Positions 560 through 62,090 of a DNA stretch of 64,000 nucleotides are shown here, in pieces. How positions within the stretch are numbered: position 1 is the stretch's first letter; every line of letters starts with the position of its first letter. A program made the translations under genes and the position numbers. The notes beneath the pieces were generated by a model, which ran no database searches, was not told the origin of the DNA, and worked only from the letters and a program-made list of their open reading frames with translations. Source of the DNA: Eledone cirrhosa (lineage: Eukaryota); the NCBI GenBank assembly GCA_964016885.1, contig OZ024742.1, forward strand, positions 204,600,001-204,664,000, written 5' to 3'.

Positions 560-1483
<924 letters not shown>

Positions 1484-1661
1484 AATCTACCAAAATATAC
1501 GGTAGTGTCCAATCCGTATGAAGAACTCAATGTAATCCAAATATCATGAAAAGCGATGTATTCAAAATTTTTTCGATGAAAAACACAGGAAAACAGAGTC
1601 AGATAAATTTATAACAATAATGAATAAAAACAAAGAAACAGTTCCTTATATTAAAAAATTC

Positions 1662-1795
1662 ATCATTTTACGATCGTTTCTAGCATATATATGTGTGTGT
1701 TGGTATGTATATCATATAGATCTATGTAAAAGTTTTACAAACTATCAGAGGGAATATACATACCTACACATATATATGCTGTCTTTAGAAATAAT
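1662..1795 (-). ncRNA. Hammerhead ribozyme with long stem II (core mutated to CUAAAGA)
   Basis: Reverse complement: attattt-CTAAAGA-c agcatatatatgtg...cacatatatatgct a-GAAA-cgatcg-TA-aaatgat. Confidence 0.65.
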
Positions 1796-1897
1796 TGTTT
1801 CTACTTTTGGCACAAGGCCAGCAATTACCCAGTGTATTACTGGTACTTTATTTTATCGACCCCGTAAAGATGAAAAGCAAAGTCAACCTCGGCGGGA
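1796..1897 (-). mobile_element. 5'-truncated tRNA-derived SINE with 10-bp target-site duplication
   Basis: Matches the 3' part of 4846-5035. Flanked by tagaaataat at 1786-1795 and 1898-1907. Confidence 0.85.
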
Positions 1898-2660
1898 TAG
1901 AAATAATGATATTTGTTTATTGAAAAAAGCCAACAAAGATTTAATAAAATAGGTCGGTTTGGTAACAGGTTTTGAATTGACCAATAGAAAAGTAGTAAGT
2001 GGTCAAGTTTATAGAATAGTAGTAGTAGAGATTTAATTAAGGGGTAGAGAGAATGCAGACTTCAGTTTTGAATGGAAAGAGTATTTTGAATTAAAAGATT
2101 ACTTTGGGGATGAAAATAGGTCAAGCCGGTGAAAGGAACACGAAAATTTGAGGTTATTAAAGAATAATGCTAATGTTAAAATCTAGGGAGAATAAAATTT
2201 TACTATAAATCTGTTCGTGAAAAATATCAATCTTATTTAAAACATAAGGAATATAGATCTATAAAAAGAAATTAGAATATAGATCTATAAAAATTAATTT
2301 AATTGATAGGTATATTTATAGGGATAAATTTATATTAATTCATATAGATATGATAATATATAATTTATATTAATTCATATTAATTCATATATGAATTAAT
2401 ATAAATTTATCCCTATAAATATACCTATCAATTAAATTAATTTAATTTCTTTTTATAGATCTACATTCCTTAATGTTTAAATAAGATTGATATATTTCAC
2501 TAACACATTTATAGTACAATTGTATTCTCCTTAGATTTTAACATTAGCATTATTCTTTAATAACATCAAATTTTCGTGTACCTTTCAACGATCGTAAAAT
2601 GATGAATTTTTTAATATAAGGAAAGGAACTGTTTCTTTGTTTTTATTCATTATTTTATTA

Positions 2661-2707
<47 letters not shown>

Positions 2708-2721
2708 ATATAATATATATA

Positions 2722-2782
<61 letters not shown>

Positions 2783-2802
2783 ATATATAATATATATAAA
2801 TA

Positions 2803-2833
<31 letters not shown>

Positions 2834-2861
2834 ATATATAATATATATAAATAATATATAT

Positions 2862-3100
2862 ATATAGAGATTACAATAATCAAAGTTCAGTTTAAGTCAT
2901 GACTTAAACTGAACTTTGATTATTGTAATCTCTATATAACTGCTCTGTAAAACAACTGATGTTATTACATTGAGCTATTTATCTTACTGGTAATAGGATA
3001 GTAATTAATGACTATCTTTCACTATTTAAGGTTTGTATAAATAATATATTACCATTAAAGGTTTTATTACATACATAACCATAAATAGTATCCTTAATAC
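2862..3100 (+). mobile_element. Ultra-short fold-back PLE-tail insertion (family of 20604-24767)
   Basis: Perfect palindrome 2862-2936, then a tail nearly identical to 24600-24765. Confidence 0.75.
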
Positions 3101-3134
<34 letters not shown>

Positions 3135-3180
3135 ATATAATATATATATATAATATATATAAATAATATATATATATATA

Positions 3181-4440
3181 TTGGATTAAATGCTCTGAAA
3201 TAGCGATATATATGTGAAGATAGACATAGAATATTCGAAAATATTCTGTATGTTTATAATAAACATTTTGAAGACCTAATCGCTATAGAATAGAATACGT
3301 CACGTATTACAATTAGATTCTCGATAAAAGCAAGGGAAGTAACCTACGCGTTTCATTCTTATTAGAAATCTTCAGGATTACATATCCAGTGCTTTTATCG
3401 AGAATGACACAGCTAGAGACTTATAGAATACTTAGCTGTGTACAGGAACTGGTTTGAAAGAGCGGTTGCCGGTCCGGCAGAAATTAGAAATTGGATTAAA
3501 TGCTCTGAAATAGCGATATATATGTGAAGATAGACATAGAATATTCGAAAATATTCTGTATGTTTATAATAAACATTTTGAAGACCTAATCGCTATAGAA
3601 TAGAATACGTCACGTATTACAATTAGATTCTCGATAAAAGCAAGGGAAGTAACCTACGCGTTTCATTCTTATTAGAAATCTTCAGGATTACATATCCAGT
3701 GCTTTTATCGAGAATGACACAGCTAGAGACTTATAGAATACTTAGCTGTGTACAGGAACTGGTTTGAAAGAGCGGTTGCCGGTCCGGCAGAAATTAGAAA
3801 TTGGATTAAATGCTCTGAAATAGCGATATATATGTGAAGATAGACATAGAATATTCGAAAATATTCTGTATATTTATAATAAACATTTGAAGACCTAATC
3901 GCTATAGAATAGAATACGTCACGTATTACAATTAGATTCTCGATAAAAGCAAGGGAAGTAACCTACGCGTTTCATTCTTATTAGAAATCTTCAGGATTAC
4001 ATATCCAGTGCTTTTATCGAGAATGACACAGCTATAGACTTATAGAATACTTAGCTGTGTATATTCTATAGCGATTAGGTCTTCAAAATGTTTATTATAA
4101 ACATACAGAATATTTTCGAATATTCTATGTCTATCTTCACATATATATCGCTATTTCAGAGCATTTAATCCAATTTCTAATTTCTGCCGGACCGGCAACC
4201 GCTCTTTCAAACCAGTTCCTGTACACAGCTAAGTATTCTATAAGTCTCTAGCTGTGTCATTCTCGATAAAAGCACTGGATATGTAATCCTGAAGATTTCT
4301 AATAAGAATGAAACGCGTAGGTTACTTCCTTGCTTTTATCGAGAATCTAAGTGTAATACGTGACGTATTCTATTCTATAGCGATTAGGTCTTCAAAATGT
4401 TTATTACAAACATACAGAATATTTTCGAATATTCTATGTC

Positions 4441-7594: not shown

Positions 7595-7849
7595 TAATAA
7601 TAATAAATTTGAAGACTAAAATCCAAAGAGGGCTCGATAAGGATAAATATATATCGAATATATAAGAACCGTAGGGCAAATATTTATTAAAATAACAGAT
7701 TAAAGTTTAAGCAAAGAATCGCTGCTTTCACCCTTAACGGGATCTTCTGAAACTAACAAAGTCAATCTCATTGACTTTGTTAGTTTCAGAAGATCCCGTT
7801 AAGGGTGAAAGCAGCGATTCTTTGCTGAAACTTTAATCTGTTATTTTAT

Positions 7850-7855
<6 letters not shown>
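7595..7855. mobile_element. Fold-back HHR-like element; HHR on - at 7704-7754 and on + at 7782-7832; third copy at 11287-11362 (-)
   Basis: Inverted arms 7681-7766/7770-7855. agttt-CAGAAGA-t ccc gttaa ggg t-GAAA-gca..tgc-TT-aaact; distal stem acagatt/aatctgt in the 11.3-kb copy. Confidence 0.65.
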
Positions 7856-7880
<25 letters not shown>

Positions 7881-7887
<7 letters not shown>

Positions 7888-8610
7888 GCCTATGATGGTT
7901 GGAAGATCACTGATGAAGGACAAACTTTTTCATATGTAACCCATTTGCAACGCCGCAGCTCCATTATTATCATATTTACACATATATTTTTTCCTCTGCT
8001 GCTACCCGTCTGTTTCGTTCTTTGTATCTTTACCCTTTCTAGCAGTCTCTCTCTCTGTTAGCCTCTTCCTCACCCTTCACTCACTCATTCTCTGTCACTA
8101 CCTCTCCTCCTCCTCTTTCTTCCCGTTTGACCTGTGTGTGATTCTTTTCTCTCGCACGCTGGCCAAGCTGGTATGAATTTTTTTTTTTTTTTTTTTCTCT
8201 CTCTCGTCTACGATTTCACAAAACTTATGTTTACCGAATTCGCAGACCAGACCCCTTCTTCCCCCCGTTAGACCTGTGCGAAATTCCTTCCTTGCTCACA
8301 TTTTCAACCAGGTTTGATGGTCTTTATTCTCTCGTTCACGATTTCACCGAATTTAAATTCATAGAAACCTGGGACTTGTCTCTTTCTTCATCACTTTCTG
8401 TTGCTTAAACCATTTTGTTTGTTTACCCTCGCATCCCCTTTATTTACGTGTCCCAACGACTTTTTTTAGCCGTTGCTCGCACCAACCGGAGGTATATGGT
8501 CTTTAAAGCGATGAAATGCCTATGATGGTTGGAAGATCACTGATGAAGGACAAACTTTTTCATATGTAACCCATTTGCAACGCCGCAGCTCCATTATTAT
8601 CATATTTACA
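7881..8610 (+). mobile_element. 630-bp non-coding unit with about 100-bp terminal direct repeats carrying a permuted HHR-like motif
   Basis: 7881-7985 repeats at 8511-8612. Homologues at about 37350-37840 and 61955-62066. Confidence 0.65.
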
Positions 8611-8677: not shown

Positions 8678-11232
8678 TAAGGCGGGTAAAATTCCCGAGA
8701 TCCATGGACGAGTTCTCTCCAGCGGTCTCTGTCTCTCATTATCGCTGCCATGTCCTGCGTCTCCAACAGACCAGTGTCTGTCCTTAGGGCATCAACATAC
8801 GTTAACCTTGGTCTTCTTCTTCTAGTGTGTCCATGTAGGGGCTCCCACATGAGCACTGAGTGCAATGTCAACTCTGGATGTCGGTGAGCATGTCCAGCTA
8901 ACCTCAGTCTCCTCGAGGAGAGTGGTATACAGATACTTGCGATCCAAGAACACAGGATCCTACACGATGAGCCCGTGAGGAGTGTGATGATTGGGAAGAG
9001 GAGCCAGCTCATCACTACATCGGCAGTGAAGAACATGACCAATGCTGCATTGGGGGGAGTGGGTTTTGTTTTCAGCACAAAAACCAGTCTATTGGTGAGG
9101 GAAATAATGCCTGTCTATCCGCGAGTGTTGAGGGTGACCTTCAATGGAAACCCAAGACTGACAGTCATCTCAGCCTATAGTCCAACCGAGGGGGACAGTT
9201 ATGTGAGTGCGGAAGAGTTCCATGAGGAGGTGTGTAGAGCTGTCAACACCACTCCGTCACAAAATATCCTGCTTGTTTGGGGGGGACTTCAATGCACATC
9301 TGAGTAAGGAGGGCAGTGAAGATCCTTGCTGGTACTTCCATAACAACACCAACCGAAATGGAAGACTACTGAGAGACACCCTGCTGGAGGCGAACTTGAT
9401 AGCGACCAACCTAAGGTTTAGGAAGAATCCGGGGAAGATGTGGACCTACATCTCAGATATGCACCTGTCCAAGTCCCAGATTGATTTCATTCTGGTGAGG
9501 AAAAAGTGGCGGAATAGTGTTCTGAACACAGAACCATACAACTATTTCAGTACACTGGGTAGTGACCACCGGCTTGTTATGAGTGAGGTCCGGGTGAGCT
9601 TAAGAAAGAGCAAGGCTCGGCCCCGGAGAGCAATCTATGACTGGGGAGCTTTCAAGGAAGATGATAAGCTACAAGAGAGGTTCACAGTGGAAGTGAGAAA
9701 CAGGTTCAGTGCTCTGTGTGGAGAGTCAGAGGAGTGAGAGATTGGATGGACTGAGGAGAGTGTGACGAGGAGGTAAGGGCACTTCACCAATGCAGTGGCG
9801 GACCCTGGTGACGATAAAAAAGAACAAAAAGACGCACGTCAGCTCTGCAAACCCAAAAGTGTGTGCAGCCAGAGAACACCTGAAAGCTGCCAAGGACCAA
9901 TTCTATGCTGATCCTACGGAGGAGAGGAAGGAGACTATAGAGGTGATGAGGGAAGAACTGTGTACCGCTTACACTGAGGCCAGAGAGGGGACACTGATAG
10001 AGAAGATCAGAAGTGTGGAGAGAGCGGTTGACAGATCTGGATGTAAGGAGAGCTGGATGATCATCAACGAGATCACAGGGGGGGGGTCTGTAACCGGGCA
10101 CTGGAGAAAGGAGTTGCCCCAAATCAGTGGAGGATCAGTAACATCGTCCCAGTGCCAAAGAAGGGAGATCTCTCTAACACCAACAACTACAGGGGGATCT
10201 CACTGACGTCACTTGTGGCAAAGACCCTCAACAGGATGATTCTTAACAGGATCCAGCCTGAGATGGAGAAGAAGCTCAGAGAGAACCAGAACGGCTTCAG
10301 AGAGGGAAGATCAACCACCAGTCACATCCTGATGCTGAGGAGGATATTAGAGGGAGCTAGAGCAAAGTGTCTTCCTGCGGTCATGGTTTTCATTGACTTT
10401 AGGAAGGCCTTTGATTCTGTGGACCGTCACTGCCTGATGAAGATCTTACAGGTTTATGGAATCCCCAAGAAGATAGTGGACCTGATATCACTGCTCTACA
10501 CAAACAGCAAAGCCCAAGTCATTACACGTGATGGGATGACAGAGTTCTTTGAGATACTGGCTGGAGTGCTCCAGGGAGATACATTGGCTCCCTACCTTTT
10601 TATCATCGTAGTGGACTATTGTATGCGCCTTGCACTGGAGAAACACCAGGACTCTGGCTTTACTGTAGCACCGGCTCAGAGCAGGAGAGTTAAGGCGAAA
10701 AAGGTATCGGATGCTGAATTTGCCGATGACATAGTTTTGGTGACAAATACAGTGAAGGAGGCAGAGGATTTGATGCGGGAGGTTGAGACTGTGTCGATGA
10801 GTGTGGGGCTGAGAATGAATGAGACTAAAACAAAATATCTGGTAGAGAATGTTGAGAAGCCAGAGGGGATCACTAATGTAGGCGGGAAGCCGCTAGAATT
10901 GGTTGAGGGCTTCCTGTATTTGGGAGCAAAGATTGGGAATACGGAAGATGATGTGGTTGAGAGGAAGGGCAAAGCCTGGGCGGCGTGCCACAGCTTGAGA
11001 TCGGTGTGGAAGTCGGACCTTCGTAAAGACCTGAAAATCCGTCTCTTCATTGGTGTAGTGGAGTCTGTGCTGCTGTACGGGTCTCAGACCTGGACACTGA
11101 CCAAGAAACTCACTCAGATGGTGTATGGGTGCTTCACGAGAATGCTGAGGATGGCTCTGAACATTAATCAGTATACACTGAGGATGAAAAAACTCAGAGC
11201 TGTATGGGAGCATCCCAAAAGTCAGCTCAAAA
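8678..11232. mobile_element. RTE-clade LINE with 5' inversion (3' end on - at 8678-8915; APE-RT body on + at 8915-11232)
   Basis: APE motifs (SAYSPT, GDFNAH, QIDFIL, SDHRL) and RT motifs (NYRGISL, FIDFRKAFDSV, GVLQGDTLAP, FADD). C-terminus RRLRLAGH..HPE..WEP is on the opposite strand. (TAGA)n tail. Confidence 0.9.
8975..11232 (+). pseudogene. Frameshifted APE endonuclease-reverse transcriptase ORF
   Basis: ORF pieces 8975-9307, 9207-9737, 9790-10206, 10152-11342. Confidence 0.88.
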
Positions 11233-11396
11233 GAATATGTATATATATATTATATATATATATAATATATATATATTTATTAAATAACAGATTAAACTTT
11301 AAGCAAAGAATCGCTGCTTTCACCCTTAACGGGATCTTCTGAAACTAACAAAGTCAATCTGTAAACGCAGAATATATATATTATATTGTTATACTT

Positions 11397-35388: not shown

Positions 35389-37874
35389 GTCGGGGCATAC
35401 GTATGTACTGGCCTAAATCTTCACTATTTACTTTTACTATTTTAATAACCTCTGTCATTTTCGTTTTCAATTTTATTTACATCATTCTTAAACTCCGGGG
35501 CTGGAAATCATTCTGTTATTTTAAATAGAATATTAGTCTAACGACTCCGTTTATACCATAAACTTGGTCTTGTCTTTGTATAAAATTGTTCTTCACGCTC
35601 CACATAACGACGTATTATCCTCGCTTTTTTCCCGTTCATTGCCAGGGAACGTCTTCACGAACCAAAATATCGTCTTCCTGTTTTCGTTCGGTTGCAACGT
35701 TGTTCGAAATATTTACTTCTGCGTTTACAGATTACTCTCAGTTCAATTTGAATGGGAAATTCCTGTTTCATCGATTTTCTCCGTAACCATGAAAGCTTGT
35801 AGCTTGAAAGTCGACCCAACGCCTCCTCGGGTCATTCTGCATAACTGTGTAAATTTTCGCTGCATTCCACCAAGCCGTTTCGAGGTTCATCCGATTACAC
35901 CTACATATACAACGTCCGACCACTTCCAATTTATATAGTAGATTTGTTTATATATGAATGACAAAATTATTTATATTTAATATAGAGCAATTGTAATTTA
36001 AAAATGAAAATGAAACGTACTGTAGAAGCCAACAGTTTATTAACAGCAAAATAACGTTGTTTTTGATATGTTATTTTAAATAAGACAATGAATTGAAAAA
36101 TACTACTTACTGTTAGTGGTGGTTAACATGTATTAGAATTAAAATGAAAATGATATTTGAAAAAACGTACTTGAGAACATGACTCCCTTCTTCGCAATTT
36201 AAGGCTTTTATTTCTTTTGATGGAAAACAGTGACCGTTTTCGGTTTGGCATTTCGTAAAATGGTACTGCAGAATTGATTTCATAAAACGGTACTGTATGA
36301 TAGTTTACACTTTGATTTCCCTGGTCAGCAAGAGGGGCCTCTATATATTAGATGTTTATTAGAAGAGGGGGAAATAACTAACCCCAGTATTAGAACAGGA
36401 GGTTCGCAATGTAGGGGTTTTATTTACGGTACTGTATGATCGTTATAGAAGTATTTAAATTTAATATACAGCAACTGTAATTGAAAAATGAAAATGAAAC
36501 GTACTGTAGAAGGCAACAGTTTATTAATCTGCATTTTCAAACTTGCATATCATCGACATTGCTATTTCGCTGTTAATAAACAACGCTTTTCACGTCGCTC
36601 CACTTCTCATTGTACGCCGTCCAGCCCCAAGTGCATATTTCTATTTTTTTTTTCCTGAAACTGCTTCTTTATAATAAATTTTCAATAATATTTTTCAAAT
36701 TATTGGTACTGTATGTTAACAGCGAAAGAACGTTGATGAGTTTTAAAATGTGTATGAAATTGTAAATAACTCATCCAAGTATTAGAACAGGGGGAAATAA
36801 CTCACCAAACGCGATAGTATTGGGGCCCCAGGGACCACATTTTTTCAAGTTAGAGATTTGAAACCTCGTCTATTTGCTTCCTTGGCACTTTTTACATAGG
36901 TGTGTAAATTTTCATGTCAGTCCGACCACGCCTACTACCATTTAACCGTGCACATCTGAATTTCAACCACCACCCATTTCACAAATATATATTAGATATC
37001 GTCTTTTTTTAATGTATCATGGATTACGTTACTAATTACATGTAAGATGTAATTGTTACACTAAGACAGTGTAACAACGTCTTCGTTTAATTTCTGTTTA
37101 TATTGTAAATTACGATTTTATTTGATGTATCATATCTACATGTATATATACTTGCGTATAATATCAATATACACACTACACATGCTAGCAGAAAACCACC
37201 CGAATGGTGGTTTTTCTGCTAGTATATATTAAATATTAAAGATTTCTATCTGATGAACGACTTCAGACGCCTCTGTTAGAATCGTCTGACTTCGTGACAC
37301 CTTGAGTAATGGACTAATTATATTGTGTTGTTTATTACATAATTAAATATGGTTCGTATTTTTTCTATCACCTTACTGCTATCCTCTTTCTCTCTCCCCC
37401 TTCTCTCTCCTTGTACCTCTTGCTTTCCTTCACCCCCTCTGCTGGTCACACACTCTCTCGGCTGGTCTCTTCCTCACACTTTCACTCACTCACTCTCTGC
37501 TACTCCCCTCTCTCACTTCCTCCTGTCTGACCTGTGTGAAATCCTTTTCTCTCTCACTTTTCGCGTGGTTCGGACGTGTCTGTCTCTTCTCGTCGATTGA
37601 TTTGTTCGGACTTAAGTCCACAAGATTCATTGACTTGTCTCTGTTTTCCTCTCTTTACGTTGCATTACTACCATGTTGTTTGTTTACTTTCCCCTTCCAA
37701 TTCGCTCTGTCCCTATAACTTATTTTAGTTATCGCTCGCACTGATTTTGAGCTTTCTGGTCTTTAAGGCGAGGTAAAAACCAATGATAAACAGCAGACCA
37801 CTGGTGATGGACAGTCCCGTTTCTCGGCCTATTTTCATTCATATATATATAAATATATACACACACACACATAT

Positions 37875-55589: not shown

Positions 55590-58500
55590 CATGGCAAAAA
55601 GTGCAAGTCTCCTTCGACCAAATCGCAACTACAACCGTTGTATACAGTGGAGCTACGAGCTTAACAAAGTATTATATGAAGCATACAAACAATCTGAACC
55701 CCAAAAGTTCGGTTTTATGCAAAGGCTTTATGGAACTCCAAACACCCAGAATTAGACTTTTCTCCAAAGCATTTAAATGAACAGGCAAAACGTATCATTA
55801 GATGTAAATTGATACATCTAACGGAATTGAGTGATACTACAAATACATCCCTTGTAGACAGCCACCCCACCTCCACTGACAGACAAAGAGAATGGCCAGC
55901 TAAATCTAACAGTGAACAGCTCACCAACAATTTTGCTGAAATCCATCCCACTTCCACTGAAGAACAGCGAGAAAGGTCAGCTAACGAGGCTGAAATTCAT
56001 GACTCTACTGAACAAACAGAGCACCAAAAACTTGTGGACATCCTACAAGTGATATGGAACGATATGTTTCAAGAGATACACAGCTTTAATGTGAGTGACA
56101 GACCATACAACACTAGAATCAGTAAAGAACCCACTAAATTGGAATTGGAAGCGGTGAATGAAATAGCTGGCAATTATCTGAAGGCTATACGATCTAAAGG
56201 TGTAGAAACGACATTTGAAACGCTTAATGTTTTGTTATATGTTTCAGCTGTCACATTGCTATCATATAACACACATCTAAAACCATGCAATCAAGATACA
56301 AACAGAAAGCTTGAACCAGCGTGGATGCGAAATTTAAAAACCAAAATTTTGTCCCTGAGACGAAGTATCTAACACATCGCAGTCGTTATGAAATGCAACA
56401 TAGAGAGCAACTTCACACGACACCAGGAAGACCTAAAGAAAAAGTTAGAGAGACGATTTGGAGATACAAAATTTAAAACTTTGAACTCCAAATTACACCA
56501 GTTGAAACAACAACTCACAGCTACAACAGAAAGACTAAAATATAAGTCAACAGCACATAAACGACAAGTGCTAAATAGATTGTTTGCTAGAGATCCTAAA
56601 TCAGTTTATCGCAGCTTCGGTGGCAAAAGCTCAATCCCTGTAAACGACACCCCTTCAAAAGAACAGGTTAAGAGCTACTGGAGATCTGTATGGGAAACGG
56701 ATGACGGATTCAACAGACAAGCTAATTGGCTAAAAGAACTGGAACAGGACTACTGCCAACATGTCCAGACAAAACAATATGACATAGATGGGTCAATACT
56801 GGAAACAGCTCTACAGAAAATGTCGAATAGGAAATCGCCAGGCCCAGACCTCATTACAGGATACTGGTTGAAGAATTTCACTTTCTATCGGCAAGATCTC
56901 ATACGGCTGTTTACAGAAACCATTAAAGGCACACAAGAACTGCCCAGATGGTTATCAACTGCCACTACTCTCCTCATTCCCCAAAATAGCCAAACCACCC
57001 TTGCTAAAAATTACCGCCCAATTGCCTGCCCAAACATCATGTATACATTATATACTGGGTGCCTTAACCTGTTCTTACAGGATCACTGTGCTACCAACAA
57101 CATCATAACACCTGAGCAAGCTGGTGGAAAGAGGGAGGTGTGGGGTTGCATAGATCACCTACTAACTAACAAAATGATTCAGGAAAAAAACAACAAAGAA
57201 TCACAGAAACATGACTGTGGTGTGGCTGGACTATCAAAAAGCATTTGATAGTGTACCTCATGGGTGGATTATTAAGGCTTTACAGTTAGCTAAAGTCCCA
57301 CAACCATTGGTAGCTGCTGTTGAACGCCTGACCAAGAACTGGTACACCAATTTGATCCTTAGAGATGAGAAGGAGCAGGTTAAGACTGATAAGATACATT
57401 ACCAGAAGGGCATCTTTCAGGGTGATAGCTTGTCAGTGTTACTCTTCGTTCTCTCACTGAATCCACTATCTTACCTACTCAGGAAACAAGGTGGACAAAG
57501 AAGTGGGCCCAGAAGTATCTCCCATCTTTTCTTTGTTGATGACCTGAAGTTGTATGGGCCAAATATCAATGACATCAAGAAACAATTGGACCTCATTACA
57601 CAATTTTCAACCGACATCAAAATGAAATTTGGTGAGTCCCAGTGTGCATATTTGGCAGTAAAACGTGGAAGAGCTGTGCCCTCCTCTAGAAATCTAGAGA
57701 TGAACGGCCTGACAATACAACCTCTGAAGTCAGGTGACAACTACAGATATCTTGGACAGGATGAGAATGTCAGATATGATGAACCCATAAATAAGGAGAG
57801 AAACCGAACTGAATACCTCAGAAGAGTAAAGAAAATATGGTCATCAGAACTGTCAGCATACAACAAATACATTGCCCACAATACTTATGCTGTGCCAATT
57901 CTAACGCCAACATTTGGCCTGCTGAACTGGTCATTGCAAGAACTAAGTGAGATGGATGTTAGAACTCGAAAACTGGGAACTTTAACATCAATGGTGATGT
58001 GGATAGGCTATACTTCTCTTGCAAGGAAGGTGGCCGGGGTCTAAAATCAATATTAACAACATATGAGACCCGGATAGTAACACTGAAGCAACACCTTCAA
58101 CAGAGGAAAAAGGTTGGCAACCATCTTGCCCAGGTTTATGAGCATGAAAAAAAAAATATCATTAGAATAGCGACTGATCTGGAGGAGAGATATGGAATAA
58201 AATCTGATATAAATCTCTCACTCAGAGAAATCGGAAGATCCTATTCAATGTTAAAACAAGATAAAAAAATTGACCAATTTACAGAAAAAGTTGTGCATGG
58301 ATACTTGAGGCGTAAAACACAGACCATAGAGGGGATAAACCACTCAAAAAGCCTGGCATGGAGTTCCGACAAGTTTATGACATCACACCTTGAGGGATAT
58401 CTCTATGCAATACAGGAACAAGAACTCCCTACCAAATATCTGCTGCACAAAAGAGGAGGGCCAGCAGCTGACAATAAATGTAGGCGATGTAAAACAAAGA

Positions 58501-59120
58501 TCGAGGATGTAAGCCACATTGTTGCCAGCTGCGAAAGAATGTCATCTCGCTACTACCTCCCCATGAGACACGATGGGATAGCTAGAATCATCTGGAACGC
58601 ACTTCGGAAAACAAAATTAACAAAAAACGAGGAAGAATATATTGAGGCAGATGCCACTAAGGAATACTGGTGGAACCTGAAAATAAAAACTGCCACCAAA
58701 TTAAAGCACAACCGGCCTGATATTGTTGTTTGGGACCACACATAGAAAACGTGTTCTGTTGTGGAGATCAGCTGTAAACGTTGTCAGAAAAATACAGGAG
58801 AAGGAGGACATCTACGGACCATTGATGAGGAGTTTACAAATCCAGTATCCAAGATACACTTTTAGCTTCATACCCATCATTATTGGAGCTACGGGTTATA
58901 TACCAACACGCTTGGACCAAAGTATGACTGAACTTGGATTTGCGGACAAAAAGCGCAGCTCCCTAATTCATAGTCTACAAATGGCTGCGATAGCTGGCAC
59001 CTTCAAAATTTGCAAAACATTCTTGCGATTCAAGGGATGACAATTTCTTTTCTTTTACAAACTTGCCACCAGGAAGGTGGCCGGTCAAAAAAATATACTC
59101 GAAATTAAGAGAAAGAGATA
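55590..59120 (+). mobile_element. Near full-length RLE-type non-LTR retrotransposon (R4/Dong-like), frameshifted
   Basis: KSPGPD, NYRPIAC, DYQKAFDSVPH, GIFQGDSLS, FVDDLKLY, YRYLG, GGRGL, CRRC..SHIVASC knuckle, RHD, NRPDIV; ends in (TA/CA)n. Confidence 0.88.
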
Positions 59121-60016: not shown

Positions 60017-60208
60017 GTTTTAATATAGAAGAGATTCTACAGGACTAGAACTGTTTCATTCATTAGAAATCATCAGGATTCCTGATGATTTCTAATGAAT
60101 GAAACAGTTCTAGTCCTGTAGAATCTCTTCTATATTAAAACTATTATACTCTGCTATGTATTGAGTACCTTACTTACTGTGGTTACCTCCGATTCAACCC
60201 GGAATAAC
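60015..60208 (+). mobile_element. Fold-back HHR element; HHR at 60076-60126
   Basis: Palindrome 60015-60143 plus tail. ggattc-CTGATGA-tttc taat gaat-GAAA-cag ttctagtc ctg-TA-gaatct. Confidence 0.8.
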
Positions 60209-61689: not shown

Positions 61690-61935
<246 letters not shown>

Positions 61936-62090
61936 GATTTTTAATGCAATGAAATATTTAATGCAATGAAATATCTATGATCGTCGGCAAATCACTGATG
62001 AGGGACTTATTTTATTACATGTTATCCATGTGCAACCTGCAGTATTCTTCTCCCCATTTTTTCACATATATATATATATATATATATATA

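Follow-up and report, generated by a model that had tools for sequence, protein, structure and literature searches.

A hammerhead fold of S-G-C order predicted at the 3′ end of a non-coding Penelope-like repeat, probably of Naiad origin, in Eledone cirrhosa

The element at positions 7881 to 8610 of the window, by which the whole analysed stretch of 64,000 nt from Eledone cirrhosa contig OZ024742.1 is meant, is best explained as a Naiad-derived Penelope-like repeat with an S-G-C hammerhead at its 3′ end, and this explanation taken as a whole is considered quite probable. Its parts carry their own degrees of confidence. In the structural model the 3′ end very probably folds as a hammerhead whose blocks stand in the non-circularly permuted order S-G-C, and cleavage is predicted with good confidence to fall between positions 8496 and 8497. 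Judged by sequence comparison, a Naiad origin of the repeat family is probable. The coordinates of the features are collected in Table 1.

Table 1. Features of the element and of its relatives in the window (pairing values are from 38 aligned copies)
Feature	Positions	Strand	Details
Non-autonomous Penelope-like element	7881-8610	+	1.16 units (630-nt unit and 100-nt repeat); between (TA)n tracts
5′ partial repeat (pseudo-LTR), incomplete ribozyme	7881-7980	+	GAAA and CUGAUGA blocks kept, substrate strand absent
P1 closing helix, 5′ strand	8450-8453	+	pairs with 8548-8551; 95% of cells paired, 2/4 pairs with two-sided changes
Hairpin P2 of the four-way junction	8454-8475	+	8454-8458/8471-8475; 87% paired, 4/5 pairs two-sided
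Upstream strand giving most of stem II	8477-8480	+	pairs with 8508-8511; 94% paired, 3/4 two-sided
6-bp pseudoknot linking stems II and I, 5′ strand	8482-8487	+	pairs with 8527-8532; 93% paired, 5/6 two-sided
Predicted kink-turn, non-bulged strand	8488-8490	+	3n, G2n, A1n
Substrate block S	8491-8503	+	stem III strand 8491-8494, U16.1 8495, H17 (A) 8496, stem I strand 8497-8503
Block G	8508-8520	+	stem II strand 8508-8512, GAAA 8513-8516, stem III 3′ strand 8517-8520
Predicted kink-turn, bulged strand	8521-8526	+	3-nt bulge, GA, 3b; overlaps the cut site and stem I strand of the initial annotation
Pseudoknot 3′ strand, then block C	8527-8551	+	pseudoknot 8527-8532, stem I 8533-8539, CUGAUGA 8540-8546, N10.1 8547, P1 8548-8551
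3′ tail	8552-8610	+	
Decayed subfamily C copy	37350-37842	+	94% to a relative; ribozyme core mutated
5′-truncated tail fragment, subfamily B	61935-62071	+	start close to the predicted cut, TA microhomology blurring the exact place; short internal duplication

The repeat family and its copies

By its sequence the element is likely one copy of a non-coding, non-autonomous Penelope-like repeat family derived from Naiads. The initial annotation had read it as a 630-nt unit with a terminal repeat, and this was borne out, the 100-nt repeats at 7881-7980 and 8511-8610 being identical at an offset of 630 nt. The longest ATG-initiated ORF of the 630-nt unit is at most 32 aa, and 67% of the element is pyrimidine. 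The traits that PMC8557442 lists for Naiads and other Penelope-like elements are all found, namely 5′ truncation, partial tandems, an inverted 5′ copy, a 30-40-nt tail, a microsatellite target and the lack of an ORF. In 28 distinct loci of family A the 3′ ends are fixed at one of two sites about 40 nt apart, the 5′ ends are ragged and head-to-tail units are spaced by 614-631 nt; several of these loci have an inverted 5′ copy, and the flanks are mostly (TA)n. Family copies stop about 50 nt or about 84-99 nt past GAAA, an optional extension of about 40 nt that is characteristic of Penelope-like elements. Unit spacings of further subfamilies are 496-506, 530-634 and 753-762 nt.

Near-full copies of the unit with 90-98% identity number at least 40 in the 3-Gb genome, where the best 40 of 3,688 candidates were scored. 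One core pattern has 5,450 exact matches genome-wide against 1 for the reversed control, and three relaxed core patterns, which largely capture other subfamilies, gave 759, 596 and 111 matches against 0, 4 and 0 for their controls. The family and its head-to-tail joint are also present in DNA of a second organism (three contig runs). Within the window, the copies that had been pointed out near 61968-62006 and 37709-37812 are indeed related to the motif at 8513-8551 and belong to the last two elements of Table 1.

Some further observations concern the locus and its surroundings. The pyrimidine-rich body of the unit contains internal imperfect repeats (8122-8150/8264-8292 and 8200-8227/8328-8355) that are 79-82% alike. 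A palindromic repeat at 60066-60110 shows GAAA and CUGAUGA on either strand; loci L014, L134 and L153 have motifs like it, and the parse scores them as incomplete. The reverse transcriptase (RT) ORFs of the window at 10047-11342 and 57178-58044 were considered as partners of the element and rejected, no link to it being found. The ORF fragments at 10047-11342 and 57178-58745 (PF00078; zf-RVT) come from LINE-type elements unrelated to the element at 7881-8610.

Predicted fold of the 3′ end

Both parts of the hammerhead core, CUGAnGA (8540-8546) and GAAA (8513-8516), are present, and the motifs listed in the initial annotation were found where it had placed them, with the core halves in reversed order. 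Its reading of a retrozyme-like repeat whose atypical hammerhead has a multibranched stem II was upheld, as were the helices now called P1 and P2 and the main part of stem II, all with two-sided changes in the 38 copies (Table 1). The circularly permuted type II topology that it had assigned was not, since the substrate strand lies upstream of GAAA and the block order is S-G-C, a non-circular permutation. Stem III is formed by 8491-8494/8517-8520 with the pair U8495-A8516, stem I by 8497-8503/8533-8539, and stem II by 8477-8480/8508-8511 with the single pair 8512/8547, the last within a four-way junction with P1 and P2. Because the upstream substrate strand pairs in stems III and I, the cut is predicted at 8496/8497 instead of after CUA at 7892 and 8522, as had been proposed. 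The tertiary contact between stems I and II is present as a 6-bp pseudoknot with two-sided changes at 5/6 pairs, and at least 5/6 of its pairs are formed in 90 of 98 copies. In the older subfamily G (L128-L157) the same ribozyme is seen without hairpin P2 and with a longer P1, which suggests that a three-way junction is possible. A possible remnant of a second ribozyme lies at 37240-37320, shortly before the subfamily C copy, where a lone CUGAUGA precedes a hairpin.

Support for the fold comes from covariation and from conservation. In an alignment of 38 copies, which were chosen by the authors, are mostly well formed and represent about six subfamilies, 92.4% of 1,202 cells were paired, as against 78.5% after shuffling, a control that ignores relatedness, and at most 50% when slid. 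Two-sided changes were found at 24/32 pairs, and 0 of 500 shuffles reached these values; the count of further pair types in the same copies was not above shuffles (292/500). Stems I, II and III were 92%, 94% and 96% paired, each with two-sided changes, and the U16.1-A15.1 pair was kept in 37/38 copies. The 10.1-11.1 pair was non-standard in 6/38 copies and the seventh pair of stem I in 21/38. An anchored parse covered 139 of 162 copies, the other 23 being left out as truncated, and gave U at the place of U16.1 in 121 and A, C or U at H17 in 133, with G in 6. At least 9 of the 10 pairs of stems I and III were formed in 101 of the 139 (73%), as against 26% after cross-family swaps. The substrate strand and the 5′ strand of the pseudoknot were part of no search pattern by which the copies had been collected. 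Among family A copies collected by similarity alone, minor alleles were rarer in the core (4/644) than in the body (305/14,594; Fisher p=0.006), and variation in the stems was not significantly lower than in the body (p=0.14).

These data bear directly on the topology of the initial annotation, in which a type II circularly permuted hammerhead with a hairpin stem I and a one-pair stem III would cut at 7892 and 8522 and release a 630-nt monomer. The core halves do stand in the order G then C, the copy at 7881-8610 can be drawn in this way, and amphibian type I hammerheads are known in which stem III has one pair and a 4-nt loop (PMC7229834). Nevertheless this topology is now very improbable. 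Its hairpin stem I (8523-8526/8536-8539) is 77% paired with a single two-sided change in the 38 copies, its A15.1-U16.1 pair (8516/8521) forms in 22 of them, and the place it gives to U16.1 is U in 76 and A in 50 of the 139 parsed copies. In other subfamilies A or G is frequent at this place. Computed energies were −0.6 kcal/mol for the whole of this fold and −9.4 for just the three scaffold helices, and −0.5 kcal/mol for its stem I duplex against −5.3 for the alternative with the upstream strand, with which the same bases pair better and covary. In the 38 genomic copies gtcc/ggac, one of the two helices for which covariation had been asked, does covary (95% paired, 2/4 pairs two-sided), and tgat/atca, the helix of the hairpin, does not. 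Compensatory changes had also been read from the diverged copy at 37709. The same helices do covary in the 38 copies, but taken alone the 37709 copy is weak evidence because it is a decayed copy of another subfamily with both core halves and stem III altered. A palindromic dimer, considered for the one-pair stem III, was dropped after the upstream strand had been found.

In a kink-turn, two helices are separated by a 3-nt bulge and, next to it, tandem G-A and A-G pairs, and such motifs are bound by proteins of the L7Ae family. Between stem III and the pseudoknot one strand has a 3-nt bulge and GA and the other strand has GA, and in the S-G-C model the pseudoknot likely joins stem III through such a kink-turn. 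The non-bulged GA at 8488-8490, a place that was part of no search pattern, was found in 78 of 98 copies, these being counted with the GA of the bulged strand as a filter. This non-bulged GA is kept in subfamilies A, B, C and G and is replaced, mostly by ordinary pairs, in 11/11 copies of D/E. As an alternative to the hammerhead, a K-turn of the C/D or SECIS kind had been offered in the initial annotation; the kink-turn as such is likely one real part of the fold, but neither a SECIS nor a C/D match was obtained from Rfam. For the whole to be a SECIS or box C/D-type element and not a ribozyme is most unlikely, even with a kink-turn-like motif present and SECIS elements known from some Naiads (PMC8557442), as the Rfam scan of the window gave no match of any kind at gathering score, the unit is without an ORF to recode, and every core base of the hammerhead is there, as are stems I-III, with covariation.

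Traces of cleavage and the source of the enzyme

If the ribozyme cuts in vivo, copies made from cut RNA would begin at the cut. In the UC-cut subfamily, picked for TA microhomology that favours joins just 5′ of the cut, 25 of 29 places (42 rows) begin at the cut or at most 2 nt after it and the other 4 begin 1-4 nt before it, with a binomial p of about 2e-6 against a flat 3:4 split; in the cleanest variant the count is 16/18. The pre-cut positions are richer in TA microhomology, yet just 4 of the 29 starts fall there. With a stricter pattern, not equal in strictness to that giving 25/29, 1 place was found to start 8-12 nt before the cut. Among 100 listed of 1,343 matches (about 27 places), 5′ starts scatter over 12 nt past the cut with few before it, and the signal is therefore a step and not a single sharp peak. 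An automated breakpoint scan, noisy from false motifs and indels, pointed in the same direction (26 versus 10 of 163 local copies). This clustering of 5′ ends where the cut is predicted lends indirect support, from sequence, to cleavage in vivo, and suggests that cut RNA serves as a template there.

On the other hand, most copies run through the predicted cut site, so that most templates would have been uncut or re-ligated, and a core opened beside N10.1 could slow catalysis. It may accordingly be asked whether the short families have a hammerhead-derived fold that no longer cuts and persists as a signal for recognition or packaging by a Penelope-type enzyme. We regard this as improbable, given that the subfamilies have in common the catalytic bases, U16.1 and an H17 other than G, and that 5′ ends gather at the predicted cut.

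The 5′ repeat begins past the substrate strand, so that the locus at 7881-8610 has one complete ribozyme and no 630-nt monomer, as had been proposed for it, would be released from this locus alone. At least two tandem ribozymes are present in 9 of 28 family A loci, and according to the model these nine could release a unit-length monomer. From circle formation in type I retrozymes (PMC7229834) we infer by analogy that such monomers may form circles. The circularised unit folds to −114 kcal/mol against −91 ± 4 for 25 shuffles and is only 48% paired.

In the mechanism proposed for the S-G-C hammerhead, a read-through or tandem transcript would fold so that the upstream substrate strand docks onto stems I and III. 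Stem II would take the form of a four-way junction where the strand past CUGAUGA gives one pair and then exits into P1, and the 6-bp pseudoknot would clamp stems I and II, likely meeting stem III via the kink-turn. Loci with two whole ribozymes would yield unit-length monomers of about 500-760 nt, depending on subfamily, that could be ligated into circles. A Penelope-type RT/endonuclease acting in trans would nick (TA)n and prime at the AT-rich tail. Copying of the template for 0.2 to 2.3 rounds would account for the fixed 3′ and ragged 5′ ends and for the partial tandems, and reverse transcription of cut linear RNA would halt at the cut.

Naiads have been reported to be without a canonical hammerhead, and 18 of their consensus sequences were flagged only with the unexplained motifs 'HHR_core' or 'HHR_half_core' (PMC8557442). 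By eye, at least 16 of the 54 consensus sequences published in its supplement carry the permuted ribozyme class. The S-G-C fold with stem II, the pseudoknot and mostly P1 could be drawn in ten of these Naiads (Amil, Aacu, Anas, Bfor, whose stem I is short, Obim, Ovul, Esco and three further sequences), and a C-S-G form in six (three Nbra families and three others). The P2 loop and the GAAA-CUGAUGA spacing of two octopus Naiads match, again by eye, those of subfamilies B and C. Searches of the Eledone assembly itself by motif and protein found no intact Naiad, the best 150 of 318 candidates being scored, a scope within which a young, divergent Naiad may be missed. All the scored Naiad-like RT matches were decayed, with a longest open frame of 223 aa. 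A second RT motif gave 0 matches in the genome, and no ribozyme was found by profile and descriptor near the decayed Naiad-like RT remnants at 60 loci. With no intact Naiad and no ribozyme near the remnants, the link to Naiads rests on the comparison by eye with published consensus sequences.

The enzyme that moves the family today may nevertheless have another source. In loci L051 and L084 a family copy is joined head to head, with no TA tract between, to a near-intact element with C-terminal endonuclease motifs, which by its motifs we take to be Neptune-like, Pfam giving no hit, and these two fusions hint at a borrowed motor. It is thus conceivable, if somewhat doubtful, that a family with this ribozyme and a Naiad origin is now moved by a Neptune-like element of the same genome, a view that concerns only the enzyme donor and is compatible with the best explanation. 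The decay of all 150 scored Naiad-like RT matches, set against family A copies that are 90-98% identical, also speaks for it. Against it, just 2 fusions were seen in about 105 loci and no common 3′ sequence exists. A Neptune-like 3′ end occurs in 9/52, 11/62 and 4/59 loci of three sets, for which shared (TA)n targeting can account, and a young Naiad may have gone unseen among the lower-ranked candidates.

Other Penelope-like sequences were noted in passing. Locus L081 contains at 588-3730 a near-intact Penelope-like element with one frameshift between two long ORFs and C-terminal endonuclease motifs, joined head to head with a subfamily B copy, and a similar fusion lies in L084 at 1735-1738. 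Pfam gave no match for three Penelope-like peptides. In the window, 7682-7854 and 11275-11363 hold an inverted pair and a third copy of a Neptune-like Penelope 3′ end, the pair lying directly upstream of the element. This 3′ end carries a type I hammerhead-like motif with the core CAGAAGA in place of CUGAnGA. A further Penelope-like 3′ end, in L082 at 1900-1950, has a canonical-looking type I hammerhead with a palindromic stem III.

Relation to known hammerheads and retroelements

The family shares with animal non-LTR retrozymes (Cervera and de la Pena 2020, PMC7229834; Li et al. 2026, bioRxiv 10.64898/2026.07.22.740005) a build of non-coding tandem units that each hold one hammerhead, and those retrozymes have been proposed as non-autonomous partners of Penelope-like elements (PMC7229834; 10.64898/2026.07.22.740005). 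They have type I hammerheads and tandem units of 170-400 nt (same sources), whereas here the hammerhead is rearranged to S-G-C order, the units are spaced by 496-762 nt, and copies mostly hold 1-2.3 units and are dispersed. In the available part of Li et al. (2026) only type I descriptors were used (bioRxiv 10.64898/2026.07.22.740005). Type II hammerheads (Perreault et al. 2011, PMC3088659) resemble the present one in having GAAA before CUGAUGA and a pseudoknot as the contact between stems I and II. In type II (GSC) the substrate strand stands between GAAA and CUGAUGA (PMC3088659), with stems I and III as hairpins, whereas here it is upstream of GAAA.

Naiads (Craig et al. 2021, PMC8557442) are alike in (TA)n targets, 5′ truncation, partial tandems, inverted 5′ copies and a 30-40-nt tail, and the 3′ ends of octopus Naiads have, by eye, the same ribozyme fold and P2 loop. 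They differ in that the present repeat family is non-coding, with units of 500-760 nt. In the open-licence PMC and bioRxiv literature, no description of a permuted hammerhead from Naiads or from animal repeats was found. A wider reading, which we favour slightly over its denial, is that across animals Naiads and their short non-coding passengers carry an undescribed hammerhead, non-circularly permuted, with a four-way-junction catalytic block and a stem III hinged by a kink-turn. A host kink-turn-binding protein could then switch cutting, the short families would make up a second class of retrozymes in animals, with circles of 500-760 nt, and Naiads would not be without hammerheads. This would offer an answer to a stated puzzle, Naiads being the one large animal group of Penelope-like elements reported without a hammerhead. 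With a 110-nt transcript it would become possible to test what part self-cleavage plays in Penelope-type retrotransposition.

The closest known ribozymes are the type-SGC hammerheads (HRIMA-1 and variants), which cleave in vitro (Eckert et al. 2023, PMC10085705). The S-G-C order, all core bases and an extra helix joining stems I and II are common to both, and the linker between stems I and II, typically 3 nt in type-SGC (PMC10085705), is 4 nt in the element at 7881-8610. Block C, whose interruption was assumed impossible in the searches of Eckert et al. (PMC10085705), is interrupted here: past N10.1 the chain enters P1, and an upstream strand completes stem II. If the CUGAnGA block can be interrupted, current descriptor searches undercount hammerheads. 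A likely kink-turn between stem III and the pseudoknot is a further difference. No animal or retroelement source was found in the available text and supplement of that paper (PMC10085705), whose alignments may list accessions only, whereas here there are thousands of copies in an animal retroelement, by which non-circularly permuted hammerheads would extend from metatranscriptome contigs to high-copy animal retroelements. Since block C is not uninterrupted, with the single pair 8547/8512 and the rest of stem II supplied by 8477-8480, the predicted ribozyme is a variant of the known S-G-C class and not a plain member of type-SGC, and it is carried by a non-autonomous Penelope-like element.
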